From IMG/VR virus record IMGVR_UViG_3300042893_000684, positions 1-64,000 of that record: a stretch of 64,000 nt of DNA; one strand, 5' to 3'. Both the position numbers and the translations under genes were made by a program. Under the pieces are notes generated by a model. The model saw only the letters and a program-made list of their open reading frames with translations, was not told the origin of the DNA and searched no databases. Each line of letters begins with the position of its first letter. Within the stretch, counting starts at the first letter, position 1. The DNA is from a virus. Shown here piece after piece: positions 48,726 through 57,032 of this stretch.

Positions 48726-51700
48726 ATGGCAGATAATTTAATCACCACCAATATTACCGCCAACGCAGACTTCACGAGTTTAAGAACTCAGCTTGCTGCG
48801 GTTACTGCCCAACTCGTAAAATTACAAGAAACAACGGCGGGAACTAACGCCAAACTAGCAAATCAAATTGCTGTAATGAATAAGTCCTTCGCAGAAACTA
48901 TGCGATCAACGGGACAGTTTTCATCACACTTTGTATCGCTTACATCAGACGTAGAAAAATTTGGTAGGAACCTAGATAGAGGAAGACTTAAACTAGGGGA
49001 ATACTACAACGCCTGGAGTGGGCATACAAAGAAAACAAGCAGCCTGATTAGAGACCTGGCCAAGCAGCAGGTAATGCTAGAGAATGCAATCATTCAGCCT
49101 ATCGGCAAAAACGCACAAGGCCTAATGCAATACAATGTTATGGTTGCAAAGGGCCTTGATGAAATAAAGAACAAGACGGCAATTGCAAGACAAGAGCTAT
49201 CTATCATGAATAAGGTAATGCTCGATGGATCTAATCAGCTTATCAATTGGGGTAAGAACACCCAGTGGGCTGGCCGTCAGTTAACAGTAGGACTAACAGT
49301 TCCTCTTGCAGCATTTGGAATGGCTGCACAAAAAGCATTTAGAGAAGCAGATCAAGAGCTTGTAAGACTTACAAAGGTTTACGGCGGACTAAGTGCAACA
49401 TCATCTTCAGAGCTAGCAAAAGTAAGAAAAGATGTTTCCGAAACAGCAAGAGAAATTGCTGGAGCATACGGAATTGCATACAAAGAAACTATTGCATTAG
49501 CAGCTGACCTTGCTGCAACAGGACAAGAAGGCGGAAACCTTCTAGAAGCTACAAGACAGACAAGCAGACTTTCAATCCTTGGTGAAGTAGACAGACAAGA
49601 AGCAATGAAGGCAACTCTTGCTATTCAAAATGCATTTAAATCAAGTACAGATGAATTAACTCAATCTATTGACTTTCTTAACGCTGTTGAAAACCAGACA
49701 TCCACTTCTCTACAAGATTTAGTTGAAGCAATCCCTAAAGCAGGCCCTGTTGTAAAGTCTTTAGGTGGAGATGTAAAAGATTTAGCATTGTATTTAACTG
49801 CAATGAAAGAAGGCGGAGTAAACGCATCAGAAGGTGCTAACGCAATTAAGTCAGCAATGGCATCTCTTATCAACCCAACAAAGGTTGCAAAGGAAATGTT
49901 TTTTGGCTTTGGTATAGATATAGATAAGATTGTAACATCTAATGCGGGAAATTTAACTGAAACAATTACAGACCTTCAAGCAGCTTTAGACAGACTAGAT
50001 CCACTAAGCAAGTCAAGAGCAATTGAACAGTTGTTTGGTAAGTTCCAGTATGCAAGAATGTCAGCCCTATTTGAAAACCTAGGTAAAGAAGGATCTCAAA
50101 CTCTTCAGGTAATGGATTTAATGAAAGCAAGCGCTACAGATCTTGCAAATATCTCTGCTCGAGAATTAACTATGATGACAGAGTCCGCTTCAGGACAATT
50201 TAAAAGAGCATGGGCTTCAGTCCAAGCAGACCTTGCTTCAGTAGGAGAACAATTTTTAAGAATTAGCACAAAGGTTTTAAATGTAGTAGATGGGATCATT
50301 AAGTTTTTCCAAGGACTTCCAGGTCCAGTTAAAACATTCCTTAACGCTCTTGGTGGACTAACAGCATTTGCTGGACCACTAATTATGTTAACTGGTGTTA
50401 TGGCCAACTTTATTGGTTATGTTACAAAGGGAATATTCTCTTTAAGACAAATGGCTACAGGAGGACATGGGTTTAAGCTCCTTACTCCAGAAATATTAGC
50501 GGCAGATGCAGCAGCAAAAGGTCTTGCTACATCATTCTATTCAGATACAGAAGCAACAGTTGTATTAACAAATGCAGTAAATACTCTTGCAGCATCATTT
50601 GATAATCTTCAGGTAGCAGCATCTACAGCGCAAGTTGCAGTGCAACCAAGCATCTCAACAGTTGCAGGCGGAGTAATTGCAGCGGGAACTCCAGGCGGAA
50701 CGCCAAGATATGTTGATAAAAATAATCCATTAATTGGAGATTCATACTCAAGAGATATGTCTCACATGATTCCTGCTCAAACACAACAGGCGGGGACAAT
50801 ATTTGGAACAGTTCCAGGAGCAGGACCAGTAAACGTTAGAATTGGTAAAAACCCTCAAGCATATATGAACGCAGATCTTCCAAAGATTCCAGGTGTTACA
50901 TCTGTAAACGGAACATCGACTGGTATAGTTGCTCAAGAGGCAGCAAAGTGGCATGCAATGACAGCGGCAATTGCAATGCAATCAGAAGCAGAACTTAAAG
51001 TATTAAAGGCAGAGGTAAATGCTACAGGAACAATTACATCAAGTCTATCTAATTCTTATCAAGCCTTGCTTCCAGAATTTTCAGAAATTACAAGCATGGC
51101 TGCACAAGAAACTGCTTTAATCGTTAAGCAGCTACAGCAAAGCAAAATAACAGCAGACGAAGCAAGAATAAAAGTAATTCAATTAAATGCAACAGTTGAA
51201 GCAATGCTTGCTGAGACAGCTCAAAAGATTGCAGCTGGACAAGGAAGATCTGTAAACTTAACAACAGTTCCATTAACATCTCAACCTGTAGTAGACCCAG
51301 TAACTGGTAAATCAAATATGAAAGAAATGTTTCATAAGGGTTCTACAAAAACATTAGTAGATAAAATTGCTAGAGCGCTAGGCGGAGTTAGAACTTCAGG
51401 TGCAGGATATAACATTGAAACAACAAAGCCTAAGTTTAATAAAGGCGGAATAGTTCCAGGAACTGGTAACACAGACACCTATCATACAATGGCCGAGCCC
51501 GAATCATTTGTAATTAATAAAGCTGCAACACAAAGAAACATGCCTACAATTAGCAAACTTATTGGTGGCACTCCAACATTTAGAAACACTGGAGGAATGG
51601 TTCCAGTAGTTTTAACTCCTGGAGAAGCAGTAATTCCAGCAAAAATTGCTAAGCGTAATCCAGAACTAATGTTGCAATTAAATGGTGGCCCAGGTAATAC

Positions 51701-54700
51701 AACTGGTATGGGAAGACATCAAGGCGGAGGAGTTCACCCACACCCTCATGCAGGAAAGCCTATGACAGATGCTCAATACAGAAGAGCTCTTAAAATGTAT
51801 TATGAATTTATTAACGATCCAAACTATGAAGCCAATGTTCGTGCAAGATTTATTGCACTAGATGCTTCAGAGTATTTGGGAGTTGCCCCACAGATAGGAA
51901 CTAAAAAAGCTATTGAAATAGCTACTGCTAATTTTGATGCTGCTAAGGACCTTAATGGATCTCCCGAAGACTGGATTAAAACTAGAACAGCACAGCTTGC
52001 TGCTTTTGACGAAAAATATTCTATGGGAGACAAAAGATTAGTAAAAGAAGGAAGAAGCGCAACGGCTTCTGGTTTAACTAGCGATAACTTTTTAAATAGA
52101 AATATGAACAGGGTTTTAAGATCAATGAGCAGAAACCCATTATTTGCAGAAGCTCATGAAGATTTAAAGTCAATACCTAGAGCAACTGGTAAAATACAAG
52201 GCGGCGGAGGAAGATTAGTTGAAACTGCTAGAGGCCACGCATTTAGAAGATCTTTAATAGCACAACTAGGTGGAGTTGGCTCAAGAGGATTTGCAGGATT
52301 TGCTGCTATTATGCCTGCAGCATTTAATACAATTGCTGCACAACTTCAGGGCAAAAATTTTCAACCAGATGTAATTCATTTAAAGAGGGCAAGTGCAATT
52401 GCTGACTTTGAAGAAATGGTAAGAAAATCTGGAGTCCCTGGAAGCGTAGACGATGTAATACAAGCATTACAGTATGATACAAGATTTGTAGCTGCATCAG
52501 ACAAGAAACCACGAGTTGCTCCTCCATCACCAAAACAAAAAACTGCACTCAACATGTTTTTGCAAGCAATCTCTGCAGGAAAAGCTTGGATTCCAATTCG
52601 TGGAAAACTTGCTCTTGCAGGAGCGGTTAAATTAAATAAGGGTGGACAAGTACCAGGAAAGTTTGCACAAAGATTGTTTGGCGGCGGTAAAGCGTTGTTC
52701 TTAGGAATGCCAAGATCTATTAAGCAGGTTGAAGCCCAGAGAGCCGCAAAGGTTGCTATGGAAAAAGCAAGTCAAGCAGTTAAAGACTCTAGATTTAGCA
52801 AGACCCCAGTAACTGATTATGACGCTATGCTAGAGCCAACATCAGGAAGAAGTTTCCCAGTATCTGGAATTGGTGGAGTTTATAGCAAGAACGGGGAAAA
52901 GGTTTTTGTTAAGCCAGTACTAGATGAAAAAGCAGCGCTTGCTGAGATAAGAGCAACTGAAATTGCTCGTGATGTTCACGGACTACAAACACCTAATCAA
53001 AGAGTTGTTGTAATGAGAGACCCAACTGACAGAAGAGGATCTAGAACACTACTAGCTTTAGAGTCTAAGTACAATCCTGCTATAGCAAATCAAGATGGTA
53101 AATTTACAGAAGATCAATACTTTAGACAGTTAGTTGCATCATCATTACGTGGCGACAAAGATTTAGGCAGGGGTAACCTTTCTGGGAACATACTTGCCGA
53201 TGTAGGTCCAGCTGGGGTATTTTCAACAGCCTCTGGACCAAGAGATTATTCTGCAACAATGCCTTCATTTAAACAACAAGCAATGATCAACTTGCTTGGA
53301 GTAAAAGGAAGCAGTACAAAGAAATTCTTTGCTGAAGCAACTTCAGATATTCCAAGAGGTATGACACCTGATCAATACAATGATCGCATGCTGCAAGAAA
53401 TTGAATCTGCTCTCCCAAAGCTAAAACAAACAATAGGTAGATTTGATTTAAACACAGAAGAAAAAGTTATTTACAATGCAATGATCACAAGACTATCTGA
53501 TGCAAGAAGACAAACTTACAGAGATTTGCATGGAGTTCATTCATCAGTAACAATGTCTCCAGAAAAAACAATGACTCCAGCAGCAATTGCCAAAATGCTT
53601 GCAGCAGATGAATTGAAGCGCAGACAAAAGGGTCACTCTGTAAGCCTATCTGATAATGCATTTAAGACACCAGAAAATGGATTCAATATTGGCGGATTAA
53701 TTGGAAACGTTCTTAAGGGTAAAGCAATGCATAGAATTGGTGCAGGATTTGGCCCAACTGGAGCACCTAAGCCAAGTATGTATGAGTCAGCTCCATGGGG
53801 CGTGAACTCTCTATCTATTGAAATGGCCGACAAGCTATTTGCAAACACAGGTTTAAGAAAGCATACTCAAAAATTATTCTATGACAAGTTTGCGGCAGCA
53901 CTAGCAAAAGAAAAACCTTACGGATATGTAAAGATGCCAGATGGTAAATTAAAGAACGGACTCGAGCCAGACGTGCTAGACTCTGTAATAAGATCAGCCG
54001 CTTCAGATCTTGTTGGAGACAGAAACATAATTAAACAACTTTCTCCAATTGATAAAGATATTTTGCGAAACAAATATTTAAATTGGGATTCTAAAAAAGA
54101 TACTCCGCTTACAGAATCTTTAAAGAAAATTATATTTGGTTTAGAAAAAAGAGAAATGGGCGGACCAGTTAACGCAGGTCAACCATACGTTGTGGGAGAA
54201 AAAGGACCAGAGCTATTTGTACCTAGAAATTCAGGAGGCATTGTTCCAAACGGATACATGAAGGGCGGAAACATTGCAATGCTTGGAGCCTCACTAGCAC
54301 CAATGCTAATTGCGAGCAAGATTACTAATCCTTTACTTCAAACAATAATGCAGACGCTTTCATTTATCATACCTCAAATGATGATGACGGCAATGATGCA
54401 GACAAAAGCTGAAGGCGCACAAGGAAGAGTCGGTGGACTTATGTCTAAGATTCCAGCTTCTGCAAAAACTCCTATATTCTCTACAGCAAGAGGGACAAAA
54501 GTTGCTGGTGAAATGTTGGAAGATGGAACATACGCCAAGGGCGGAAGAATGCTCAATAGATACGGCGCAGCTCTTCAGAATTCTGCCAAGAGCGGGAGCG
54601 CAGTAACAAGAACCCTGGGAAGAATTGGAATGGGTCTTACAAGATTAAATGTAGGACTTGCTGTAGCAACAGGAGCTTTTATTCTTATCAATAAAAGAAT

Positions 54701-57032
54701 AAGGGATCACAACGAACATTTAAGAGTTGGGGTAACACAATACGGACTAACAGAAGAAGCTGCCAAAAAGGCGGGACTTAAGTTTACTGATTACAACTCA
54801 AAGCTTGCAGATACTGTTAAAAACATAGAAGCAATACGAGAAAGAAATCAGTTCCTTTATGAAAGCATGCAAGATGCTGGACTTCCTATATCCATGACAA
54901 TTGAAGAGTATAAGAAGCTTAAGAAGGAAGTTAAGGAAGTATATACTGATCAAATTAAATTAATTAATCAGTCTAAAGAAAGTGAACTTCCACAAGTAGC
55001 AATAGACATTAAGACTGCTCTAATGGCTGCTGGGTTATCAGCAGATGAAGCAAGCAAGAAGATATTTACAATGTTTAAGCTTTCTGAAAAGGGAGAAAAG
55101 GCTGGTGCATTTACTGTAGGTAATCGTGCATTTAGAAATATTAAAACAGGACAAGATGCAGCCGAGGCTGCAATAAACACTTATACTACTGCCTCAGATG
55201 GTAAAGAGAAAGCACAGGCAGTAAATACAGGTCTAACTGCTATCGATGCAGGAATCATTGATATGATTGAGCAAAGTAAAAAAGCTGCTAGAGAAGACAA
55301 GAGTGGAAATACAAAAGTATTAACTCAGTATCAAGCCCAAGAAGCAATGCTTCAAAAACTAAATAAGCTAGAATCTTCTAAAGCTGTTCTTACTGCAAAA
55401 ACTAGAGCGGAAATGATTAAGCAGAATCCAGAACTTAAAAAGATTATTAATCCTATGGATACAATAGTTAGCTTATTTGAAAAGATGAATCTTGCAGCAA
55501 AGGGATTTACTGGAGATCTTTCAAAGTTAGGCGCTGAGGCTGTATCTACACTATCAAAAGTTGCAGATTCCATATCAGAAGCAACCGTTGCTGCGAACAA
55601 AGAGGGTCTATTAAAACAACAGTACATAGATTTAAAGAAGCTAACAGATCAACAAAAGGCATTAATGCAAGCGGCCAAAGGACAAACTGCTCAGCAACAA
55701 ATAAACACTAGAGAGCAGCTAAAGGGTTTGCAAAAGCAAATAGATGCTAATAATAAACTTGCAGAGTCAAGACTAAAAGCATTAGATGCAGCAAAGCAAG
55801 AGGGCGATATTGCAAGACAAATTGCAAAAGCACAAGCAGCATACGAAGCAGCTTTAGCAACAGGCAATACTGCTGCAGCACAACAAGCAAGCTTAGATAT
55901 TCAAGGTCTGCAATCAGATCAGCAATACAACTCTCAAAAGAAAGCAATTGAAGATGCTCTTAAGCTAGCCAATGCTCCTCTTGAGGCTAAGATAAAATTA
56001 ATTAATGACGGACAACAAAAGATGTCAGACAATGCATCAATTGCTGCAGAAAAATTGGGCTCATTAAATGCAAGGATTGATAAGCAAAAACAAAAGATTG
56101 ATGATGTTAATCAAGCAATGGTCACCTTAGCACTAAATGCAGCTGCTGCAGGAAAAAGTATAGAGGATTATATTAAGTTTGGAACTGATGAAGACCCAAA
56201 TGCTGGTAGAGAGGCTGCTGCAGGCCTTGTTGGAGCAGTAAGAACAGCAAAGCCTGGAACAGTTCCTGAATTTAAACAACCAACTCATCCAAAGGGTGTT
56301 AAAACTCCAATTGATGTAGGTACCCAAGCCCTGGGAATAATGGGCGGGGTAGAAGGAGCTATTACAAAAGGATTAGCCTCAAAGGGTATTCAAATGGGCA
56401 GCGGAGATATTATTATTAATGGAAAGAAGATGGATGTTGGCCAATCAAATGCTACTGCTAAGATTAGTTCTGTTCCTACAACTTTAGGCGTAACCGCTGG
56501 AGCCTATGCAGGATCTACAATTATTCATCCATCTACACTTATGGCAGCAGGAGCATCTCAAATATCTGATGGCAAACGAGGCTCTACTTGGGTTGGTGTT
56601 GAGTTTGTAGATAAAAATGGTAAAAAGTGGAAGGTAACTTCTGATGCAGGGAGAGCTGGTCTTAACGTTCAAGCAGTAAAAGCTGGTTACGGAACAATGA
56701 AGCTTAATCCAAATGTTCCTACTATTGTCGGAGACCGTGGACCAGAAATGGCATTTGGCGGAATGGTTATTCCTAATATGGCTAAGGTACCATATGCTTC
56801 ACCTAGATACGATATTAAGCAAGCAGCAAAAATGTTTGAACCAATGCGTGATTCAGGGGTAGGACAAGGTGTAATTAATTATACACAACATATTCATGCC
56901 TCTCCAGGAATGAATGAGGATCAATTAATAAGTAAAGCAAAGGTTGCAGCATATGAATTCTTGCAGGCCAATATAAAAACTAATGCTAAAATGAAGGGCA
57001 ACCCAATGAATGTAGGTATTAAAAACACATGA
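48726..57032 (+). CDS. Tape measure protein with internal globular cargo domains (2768 aa)
   Basis: N-terminal TP901-type core (LTVGLTVPL, EN.TS.SL.DL.EAIPKAG); central non-helical region with xxxGG motifs and a kinase-like domain; VGE.GPE motifs. Confidence 0.9.
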   Translation: MADNLITTNITANADFTSLRTQLAAVTAQLVKLQETTAGTNAKLANQIAVMNKSFAETMRSTGQFSSHFVSLTSDVEKFGRNLDRGRLKLGEYYNAWSGHTKKTSSLIRDLAKQQVMLENAIIQPIGKNAQGLMQYNVMVAKGLDEIKNKTAIARQELSIMNKVMLDGSNQLINWGKNTQWAGRQLTVGLTVPLAAFGMAAQKAFREADQELVRLTKVYGGLSATSSSELAKVRKDVSETAREIAGAYGIAYKETIALAADLAATGQEGGNLLEATRQTSRLSILGEVDRQEAMKATLAIQNAFKSSTDELTQSIDFLNAVENQTSTSLQDLVEAIPKAGPVVKSLGGDVKDLALYLTAMKEGGVNASEGANAIKSAMASLINPTKVAKEMFFGFGIDIDKIVTSNAGNLTETITDLQAALDRLDPLSKSRAIEQLFGKFQYARMSALFENLGKEGSQTLQVMDLMKASATDLANISARELTMMTESASGQFKRAWASVQADLASVGEQFLRISTKVLNVVDGIIKFFQGLPGPVKTFLNALGGLTAFAGPLIMLTGVMANFIGYVTKGIFSLRQMATGGHGFKLLTPEILAADAAAKGLATSFYSDTEATVVLTNAVNTLAASFDNLQVAASTAQVAVQPSISTVAGGVIAAGTPGGTPRYVDKNNPLIGDSYSRDMSHMIPAQTQQAGTIFGTVPGAGPVNVRIGKNPQAYMNADLPKIPGVTSVNGTSTGIVAQEAAKWHAMTAAIAMQSEAELKVLKAEVNATGTITSSLSNSYQALLPEFSEITSMAAQETALIVKQLQQSKITADEARIKVIQLNATVEAMLAETAQKIAAGQGRSVNLTTVPLTSQPVVDPVTGKSNMKEMFHKGSTKTLVDKIARALGGVRTSGAGYNIETTKPKFNKGGIVPGTGNTDTYHTMAEPESFVINKAATQRNMPTISKLIGGTPTFRNTGGMVPVVLTPGEAVIPAKIAKRNPELMLQLNGGPGNTTGMGRHQGGGVHPHPHAGKPMTDAQYRRALKMYYEFINDPNYEANVRARFIALDASEYLGVAPQIGTKKAIEIATANFDAAKDLNGSPEDWIKTRTAQLAAFDEKYSMGDKRLVKEGRSATASGLTSDNFLNRNMNRVLRSMSRNPLFAEAHEDLKSIPRATGKIQGGGGRLVETARGHAFRRSLIAQLGGVGSRGFAGFAAIMPAAFNTIAAQLQGKNFQPDVIHLKRASAIADFEEMVRKSGVPGSVDDVIQALQYDTRFVAASDKKPRVAPPSPKQKTALNMFLQAISAGKAWIPIRGKLALAGAVKLNKGGQVPGKFAQRLFGGGKALFLGMPRSIKQVEAQRAAKVAMEKASQAVKDSRFSKTPVTDYDAMLEPTSGRSFPVSGIGGVYSKNGEKVFVKPVLDEKAALAEIRATEIARDVHGLQTPNQRVVVMRDPTDRRGSRTLLALESKYNPAIANQDGKFTEDQYFRQLVASSLRGDKDLGRGNLSGNILADVGPAGVFSTASGPRDYSATMPSFKQQAMINLLGVKGSSTKKFFAEATSDIPRGMTPDQYNDRMLQEIESALPKLKQTIGRFDLNTEEKVIYNAMITRLSDARRQTYRDLHGVHSSVTMSPEKTMTPAAIAKMLAADELKRRQKGHSVSLSDNAFKTPENGFNIGGLIGNVLKGKAMHRIGAGFGPTGAPKPSMYESAPWGVNSLSIEMADKLFANTGLRKHTQKLFYDKFAAALAKEKPYGYVKMPDGKLKNGLEPDVLDSVIRSAASDLVGDRNIIKQLSPIDKDILRNKYLNWDSKKDTPLTESLKKIIFGLEKREMGGPVNAGQPYVVGEKGPELFVPRNSGGIVPNGYMKGGNIAMLGASLAPMLIASKITNPLLQTIMQTLSFIIPQMMMTAMMQTKAEGAQGRVGGLMSKIPASAKTPIFSTARGTKVAGEMLEDGTYAKGGRMLNRYGAALQNSAKSGSAVTRTLGRIGMGLTRLNVGLAVATGAFILINKRIRDHNEHLRVGVTQYGLTEEAAKKAGLKFTDYNSKLADTVKNIEAIRERNQFLYESMQDAGLPISMTIEEYKKLKKEVKEVYTDQIKLINQSKESELPQVAIDIKTALMAAGLSADEASKKIFTMFKLSEKGEKAGAFTVGNRAFRNIKTGQDAAEAAINTYTTASDGKEKAQAVNTGLTAIDAGIIDMIEQSKKAAREDKSGNTKVLTQYQAQEAMLQKLNKLESSKAVLTAKTRAEMIKQNPELKKIINPMDTIVSLFEKMNLAAKGFTGDLSKLGAEAVSTLSKVADSISEATVAANKEGLLKQQYIDLKKLTDQQKALMQAAKGQTAQQQINTREQLKGLQKQIDANNKLAESRLKALDAAKQEGDIARQIAKAQAAYEAALATGNTAAAQQASLDIQGLQSDQQYNSQKKAIEDALKLANAPLEAKIKLINDGQQKMSDNASIAAEKLGSLNARIDKQKQKIDDVNQAMVTLALNAAAAGKSIEDYIKFGTDEDPNAGREAAAGLVGAVRTAKPGTVPEFKQPTHPKGVKTPIDVGTQALGIMGGVEGAITKGLASKGIQMGSGDIIINGKKMDVGQSNATAKISSVPTTLGVTAGAYAGSTIIHPSTLMAAGASQISDGKRGSTWVGVEFVDKNGKKWKVTSDAGRAGLNVQAVKAGYGTMKLNPNVPTIVGDRGPEMAFGGMVIPNMAKVPYASPRYDIKQAAKMFEPMRDSGVGQGVINYTQHIHASPGMNEDQLISKAKVAAYEFLQANIKTNAKMKGNPMNVGIKNT

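Follow-up and report, generated by a model that had tools for sequence, protein, structure and literature searches.

In the virus record IMGVR_UViG_3300042893_000684 of IMG/VR, the tape measure protein (TMP) carries at residues ~1332–1637 a domain that we read, from its sequence and its predicted structure, as a previously undescribed sequence family of the protein-kinase-like (PKL) superfamily, within the atypical branch that holds CotH, CtkA, HipA, PI3K/PI4K, LepB and MavQ. The stretch analysed, hereafter the window, is 64,000 nucleotides long and comprises positions 1 to 64,000 of this record. Weighing the evidence together, we consider it probable that this new family is an optional cassette of the TMP and an active phosphotransferase that is delivered at infection onto a host target. 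The kinase-like sequence family is the new element here; virion-delivered enzymes and catalytic modules embedded in TMPs are both known kinds.

Kinase-like motifs inside a tape measure protein

The domain lies within a stop-free piece of 345 amino acids (aa) at 52647–53681 (+) of the window, which corresponds to TMP aa 1308–1652; residue numbers of the piece are converted to TMP numbers by adding 1307. A first-pass annotation, made from the letters of the window, had placed kinase-like motifs inside a tape measure at this location, and we recovered all six in the order that it gave (SGIGGVY, VFVK, LAE, GLQTP, GDKDLGRGN and LADVG) within one TMP open reading frame (ORF) of 2768 aa (Table 1). 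On sequence grounds, we take this motif set to be more than chance. The assignment of the ORF as a TMP is based on both its position in the tail module and its profile matches: Pfam PhageMin_Tail (PF10145) covers aa 239–438 (E 1e-26), TIGR01760 covers aa 192–548 (E 2e-30), and PHROG TMP families extend over aa ~20–850, with phrog_10030 as the best of them (E 3e-116).

Residue conservation was counted over 150 aligned sequences, each standing for one 50%-identity cluster and reaching down to ~29% identity. The first-pass annotation had staked its case on conservation of the K/E/D/N/D set among homologues, and we found each of these residues to be invariant or nearly so, at no less than 147/148 (K1396 137/137, E1407 141/141, D1479 148/149, N1484 147/148 and D1492 148/148). 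The Gly-rich loop is comparably constant, with G1374 (G67 of the piece) and G1384 (G77) present in 137/137 sequences, S1376 (S69) in 136/137 and Y1386 (Y79) in 133/137. P1423 (P116) and Q1468 (Q161) are invariant, and G1494 (G187) is kept in 143/148. Beyond the D-V-G motif, piece residues A195, S196, S207, N215, G221 and F228 are conserved at 93% or more, Q211 is found in 135/150 (90%), and G197 and R199 in 126/147 (86%). This segment sits where an activation or substrate-binding segment would, and we infer its role from that placement. The site two residues after the catalytic Asp, which is His in HipA and PI3K, is G1481 in this TMP, as had been pointed out from the sequence, and it is variable across the domain family; the D-to-N spacing of five is retained in the catalytic loop despite the loss of the His. 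Across 17 related loci, the median ratio of nonsynonymous to synonymous substitution rates (dN/dS) of the domain is 0.10 at dS ~0.8, with values of 0.16–0.21 for the flanking TMP segments.

Table 1. Coordinates, in the window, of the TMP ORF, its predicted kinase-like domain and the motifs in and around it
Feature	Position (nt)	Strand	Details
Tape measure protein ORF	48726–57032	+	Single ORF, 2768 aa, encloses the domain
Predicted folded kinase-like domain	52719–53636	+	TMP aa 1332–1637; AlphaFold2 model
Conserved domain core	52749–53576	+	aa 1342–1617; homologue matches span piece residues ~35–310
Six motifs, as positions in the 345-aa piece			SGIGGVY 73–79; VFVK 86–89; LAE 98–100; GLQTP 112–116; GDKDLGRGN 169–177; LADVG 183–187
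Gly-rich loop into strand 2 (G1374, S1376, G1384, Y1386)	52845–52883	+	Conservation; just before/within model strand 77–81
Strand-3 lysine K1396 (VFVK)	52911–52913	+	Codon AAG; model strand 84–91
Helix-C glutamate E1407 (LAE)	52944–52946	+	Codon GAG; model helix 94–111
Catalytic-loop-like GDKDLGRGN, D1479 and N1484 spaced D-x4-N	53151–53177	+	Directly after model helix 155–168
Metal-binding-like D-V-G (D1492, G1494)	53199–53207	+	Conservation
Conserved segment past D-V-G (A-S-G-x-R, S1514, Q1518, N1522, K-G-G-A-K-K-F-F)	53208–53342	+	Conservation
Upstream flanking G-G-Q-V-P-G motif	52641–52658	+	TMP aa 1306–1311
Downstream flanking G-G-L-I-G motif	53691–53705	+	TMP aa 1656–1660

Predicted fold and structural neighbours

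Prediction of the domain from its single sequence with AlphaFold2 (AF2) was uninformative, with a predicted local distance difference test (pLDDT) score of 44.9, and an alignment was therefore needed. Domain sequences were cut out of 162 loci gathered from IMG/VR and two contigs of metagenome-assembled genomes (MAGs), and were thinned to <80% identity. Together with short protein fragments, the thinned sequences formed an alignment of 63 sequences (A5), which leaves out the most distant homologues (29–33% identity). With A5, AF2 returned a pLDDT of 85.8 and a predicted template modelling score (pTM) of 0.80, and all five models fell between 82 and 86 in pLDDT. Means over 10-residue blocks were at least 77 across piece residues 31–320, and stood at 69 for residues 21–30 and 59 for residues 321–330.

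The model is bilobal. Its N-lobe has three strands, with K1396 in the third, followed by a long helix that bears E1407 and by two more strands and a hinge; in the C-lobe, the helix at 155–168 leads into the G-D-K-D-L-G-R-G-N loop, a short hairpin, the D-V-G motif and a helical remainder. This order of elements is canonical for a protein-kinase-like domain, and each motif lies in the element where it would be expected. The features that define the PKL superfamily were thus all found on the model, namely the bilobal fold with an N-lobe sheet plus helix C and a helical C-lobe, the strand-3 Lys, the helix-C Glu, the D-x4-N loop and the metal-binding Asp of DxG.

Structural comparison pointed in the same direction. 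In a Foldseek search against the PDB, the first-ranked match was CtkA, the secreted Ser/Thr kinase of Helicobacter pylori (PDB 3akj/3akk/3akl), with E 3e-4 and a probability of 1.0; classical kinases, AmiN and PI3K-gamma came next. The 50 matches listed in two VIA-align searches were without exception kinase-fold proteins, including CtkA, HipA, PI4KII, Vps34/PI3K, LepB, CotH, MavQ and Fam20, and re-examination of the Foldseek matches gave 10.5 for CtkA, 9.8 for MavQ, 9.5 for PI4KII-alpha, 9.0 for HipA and 8.7 for LepB. The best structural neighbour was CotH, a spore-coat protein kinase of Bacillus cereus (PDB 5jda, PF08757) to which the domain has no sequence relationship. CotH and CtkA are protein kinases, and the next neighbours, MavQ and PI4KII, are phosphoinositide kinases. 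A language-model search of the ESM-Atlas, a feature search that serves as a lead rather than a test, named LepB_N, HipA_2, PI3_PI4_kinase and actin-fragmin kinase as the nearest families.

The AF2 model, the Foldseek match to CtkA and the kinase-fold proteins listed by VIA-align bear out the kinase-like fold that the first-pass annotation had proposed. Its narrower description of the domain as HipA/PI3K-PI4K-like held in part: structural neighbours do fall in the named branch, but the domain matches no hidden Markov model of these families, the loop His is missing and the closest neighbour is CotH.

Comparison with known kinase families

Searches with the domain against Pfam, PHROGs, NCBIfam and PADLOC returned no kinase family or no match, and a Pfam scan of 63 domain members at E ≤ 10 found none of HipA_C/HipA_2 (PF07804 / PF20613), PF00454, PF08757 and PF18640. 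Sequence searches of the PDB, run both with the single protein and with the A5 profile, gave no match except one chance match to a leucine-rich repeat. Membership of individual families was considered and rejected in each case. For HipA, there was no profile match, the loop His is replaced, and alignment of A5 to Escherichia coli HipA with hhalign had a probability of 0.1%. For CotH, PF08757 did not match and hhalign against 18 actinobacterial CotH domains, three of them from loci with an ambiguous reading frame, had a probability of 0.2%. The PI3K/PI4K family was set aside on the lack of a PF00454 match and on the presence of D-L-G-R-G-N and D-V-G instead of D-R-H-x-x-N and D-F-G, and LepB_N on the lack of a PF18640 match. 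Because the sequence searches and the HipA and CotH profile comparisons fail, we assign the domain to a sequence family of its own, new within the PKL superfamily.

An optional cassette of giant tape measure proteins

Homologues of the domain were found in 163 clusters among 1.84 billion cluster representatives, and a word-indexed search recovered 910 proteins that carry it. No further loci came from a search started with the distant fragment P0259. It was found only inside giant TMPs of uncultured phages, and 93% of the 162 loci are open through both flanks (1.5–3 kb). A search for a free-standing form gave only fragments, all of them short proteins from short contigs. The frame is interrupted near the domain in only two of the 162 loci, L028:2863-4029, with a stop 21 aa upstream of the domain, and L065:1-4467, with the end of the ORF 141 aa downstream; these could be split forms or assembly errors. 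In 50,697 records of cultured phages, tblastn with the domain as query found nothing. Streptomyces and Gordonia phages that have been cultured have TMPs whose N-terminal core is in common with this TMP (~32% identity) but which lack the domain, and so we regard it as an optional cargo cassette, one that a TMP as such can function without.

The domain begins at aa ~700–715 in most homologues, directly behind the TMP core; additional inserts ahead of it push the start to ~1308 in this phage. One of these inserts lies immediately upstream at 51726–52625 of the window (TMP aa 1001–1300), has no Pfam match and aligns in only 15–45% of homologous TMPs. Locus L001 shares this insert (dN 0.055), and in loci L002 and L003 it is replaced by unalignable sequence (dN about 1.1) next to a kinase-like domain that is 97% identical. 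This swap of a neighbour beside a near-identical domain marks the middle of the TMP as a site of cassette exchange. In addition, three sister TMPs, P0257 (aa ~150–367), P0142 (aa 3650–3820) and P0154 (aa 745–913), have a second and different kinase-like insert with canonical D-T-H-P-G-N ... D-L-G motifs and a sub-threshold match to PF00454 (E 0.008), which indicates that one TMP can carry two kinase-type cassettes. Aligned locally with hhalign, the two insert families match with weak statistics (probability 8%, pairwise E 0.004), with the Lys, Glu, Asp, Asn and Asp in register and G1481 opposite the His of the second insert.

A module of ~150 aa follows the domain at 53688–54125 of the window (TMP aa 1655–1800). 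It is as constrained as the kinase-like domain (dN/dS 0.085) and accompanies it in ~55% of full-length homologues. This module could be a partner or regulator of the kinase.

Proposed activity, delivery and substrate

We read the domain as an active ATP-dependent phosphotransferase, judging by its motifs and its modelled fold. We prefer catalysis over a pseudokinase role because the catalytic set is complete and invariant and purifying selection is strong. In the reaction that we propose, K1396 together with E1407 would hold the phosphates of ATP, N1484 together with D1492 would coordinate Mg, and the catalytic base would be D1479. TMPs fill the tail tube and are expelled ahead of the DNA, and the host probably receives a ready-made kinase from the virion. 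As the TMP leaves the tail first, the kinase would, on infection, reach or cross the cytoplasmic membrane before phage genes are expressed; once in contact with cytoplasmic ATP, it would phosphorylate a host target near the entry site. Our best guess for that target is a host protein modified on Ser/Thr, which is quite possible; a membrane lipid of the phosphatidylinositol type comes second and is rather unlikely. The call on substrate is weak because protein and lipid kinases are evenly mixed among the structural neighbours.

This mix is one of several points that weigh against the proposal. No sequence-level link of the domain to any characterised kinase family was found, the His of the D-x-H-x-x-N loop is missing, and N1484 is only 8 residues from D1492, where the distance from Asn to Asp in classical protein kinases is roughly 13. 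Active-site geometry was judged from the placement of motifs in secondary structure alone. The tail-tube lumen is ~4 nm wide, and a folded bilobal domain of ~32 kDa, in the several copies in which a TMP is present, would be hard to fit; the domain may be stored unfolded or may never be a soluble enzyme. Finally, the domain may end up on either side of the membrane after ejection, and ATP is absent outside it.

Alternative roles

If lipids are the substrate after all, which we think rather unlikely, the cassette would be a membrane-lipid kinase, with phosphatidylinositol or its mannosides, both present in actinobacteria, as examples of its substrates. It would pass along the tail tube partly unfolded, would refold at the cytoplasmic face and would phosphorylate lipids at the entry site, thereby aiding formation of the DNA channel or disarming envelope-linked defences. 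Legionella LepB and MavQ would then be analogues, with the phage tail as the secretion device for a lipid-modifying effector.

We regard as improbable a kinase fold without phosphotransfer, in which the domain would bind nucleotides or be a pseudokinase in the service of the TMP itself. Such a module could sense cytoplasmic ATP and trigger channel opening or DNA release, or could act as a tail plug or spacer. In known pseudokinases, one or more of K, D, N and D has usually been lost, whereas all five catalytic residues are kept here, and a dN/dS of ~0.1 likewise speaks for an enzyme. Although the domain is always embedded in a TMP and never free, as a part serving the TMP would be, related TMP cores of cultured phages work without it, which argues that it is not needed for basic TMP function. 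The missing canonical His and the short N-to-D spacing would suit a pseudokinase, and the pseudokinases PAN3 and KSR are among the Foldseek PDB matches.

Two further alternatives retain the enzyme and change its task, and we give little credence to either. In the first, the domain would use the kinase fold for other ATP-dependent chemistry on a host target, such as AMPylation (as in SelO) or glutamylation (as in SidJ). Neither a SelO-type nor a SidJ-type entry was found among the 50 best listed matches of either VIA-align search, and the K/E/D-x4-N/D pattern is that of phosphotransfer; nevertheless, AMPylating and glutamylating enzymes do have this fold in common, and by sequence the domain family is tied to none of the true kinase families. 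In the second, an active kinase would work in the producing cell, phosphorylating phage or host proteins in the course of tail assembly or modifying the TMP or its chaperones, and its carriage in the virion would be passive. ATP is certainly present during assembly, and the packing problem would vanish if the domain acted before threading into the tube. However, fusion to the first-ejected protein would have no evident point for an enzyme that acts late, and other phage proteins with kinase-fold matches are also virion or ejection proteins (MuF, ADP-ribosyltransferase and portal fusions). That the kinase-like model is an artefact of prediction and the true fold another one is highly improbable, given five models at pLDDT 82–86 from 63 sequences, language-model neighbours that are also kinases, and invariant residues that fall exactly on canonical elements.

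Relation to known kinases and virion-borne enzymes

The active delivered phosphotransferase that we favour would differ from each of the systems that it resembles. CotH is a free cellular protein, whereas the TMP domain is part of a virion protein. Relative to HipA/HipT and CtkA, the domain lacks the His of D-x-H-x-x-N, with Gly or a variable residue in its place, and it has no HipB/HipS-type partner. Relative to the PI3K/PI4K-type kinases (MavQ, 7m7a; LepB, 4jw1; human PI4KII-alpha, 4hnd), it lacks the D-R-H motif; type II PI4Ks also have Gly at the His position of the loop.

TMPs with embedded enzymatic motifs are known, among them the Rpf-like and peptidase motifs of mycobacteriophages and the muralytic C-terminus of T5 Pb2. 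Like the present domain, these are catalytic modules within a TMP that are exposed on its ejection. The known TMP enzymes hydrolyse the cell wall from outside the membrane, independently of ATP, and are mostly smaller, whereas here a full ATP-dependent kinase fold of ~290 residues is predicted. The T7 gp0.7 kinase, made after entry and not known to be packaged in the virion, likewise represents a phage kinase acting early on host proteins; the difference lies in carriage. Injected multidomain polyvalent proteins of phages and conjugative elements include kinases that are delivered with the DNA (Iyer et al. 2017, PMC5512222). These are truncated classical Ser/Thr/Tyr-type kinases from phages of Verrucomicrobia and Bacteroidetes, described without mention of TMPs (PMC5512222). 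They too are phage kinases used early on host proteins; the carrier here is instead a TMP, and the type of kinase differs.

The best matches in the viral structure library BFVD were kinase-fold domains within other large virion or ejection proteins. They include an 'ADP-ribosyltransferase' (1340 aa) of Mycobacterium phage Onyinye, proteins of Gordonia phages Sixama and GodonK, MuF and portal fusions, proteins of haloviruses HHTV-1 and HSTV-2, and PI3K/PI4K-annotated proteins of uncultured Caudovirales and haloviruses. These matches point to a wider and little-studied theme of virion-borne kinases. Phages inject a few ready-made enzymes, and TMPs carry small wall-degrading motifs; our searches of the literature turned up no report of an ATP-dependent kinase within the first tail protein to leave. 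An active domain would modify its host target ahead of all phage transcription. Early takeover or counter-defence would then have a new route, one that would operate in a very abundant group of uncultured lake phages, as the 910 proteins and 163 clusters indicate. The storage of several bilobal domains of this size, and their passage through a narrow tail tube, would pose a structural puzzle. The kinase-like superfamily would also gain a sequence-orphan family with clear residues to mutate.

Flanking motifs, genome context and host

Motifs of the form G-G-(I/M/Q/L)-(V/I)-P/G recur at 51444, 51591, 52641, 53691 and 54234 of the window (TMP aa 907, 956, 1306, 1656 and 1837) and bracket the inserts of this TMP. 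They are often followed by a motif of the P-G-E/G-E-x-G-P-E type, and further sites lie at TMP aa ~925, 965, 1824 and 2669. The idea of a GG-delimited polyprotein proved not to be general, as a strict search for the GG motif beside the domain matches only 25–30% of homologues.

The TMP gene lies within a head-to-tail module. Upstream of it are genes for a portal, a head maturation protease, an adaptor and an Ig-domain tail protein, together with two small chaperone-like ORFs; minor tail proteins are encoded downstream. The source record is 104,426 bp long and is estimated to be 96% complete; the window has a GC content of 38.9%, and no tRNA genes were found within it. A scan of genome contigs for domain loci found only the two MAG contigs, labelled 'uncultured Bifidobacterium sp.' and Acidimicrobiaceae. 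Both are probably binned phage contigs, and we therefore treat them as weak evidence on the host. A WhiB-family gene is encoded outside the window at G000:C1:87811-87984 (L164), with a PF02467 match (E 4e-12) above the curated cut-off; among 14 control genomes, PF02467 matched in Corynebacterium only. The TMP core is nearest, at ~32% identity, to TMPs of Streptomyces, Gordonia, Rhodococcus and Tsukamurella phages. Because of the WhiB gene and the similarity of the core to actinophage TMPs, an actinobacterial host is likely despite the GC content of 38.9%, though not proven. The phage appears to be a large siphovirus-type phage, and its actinobacterial hosts are probably low-GC freshwater organisms.

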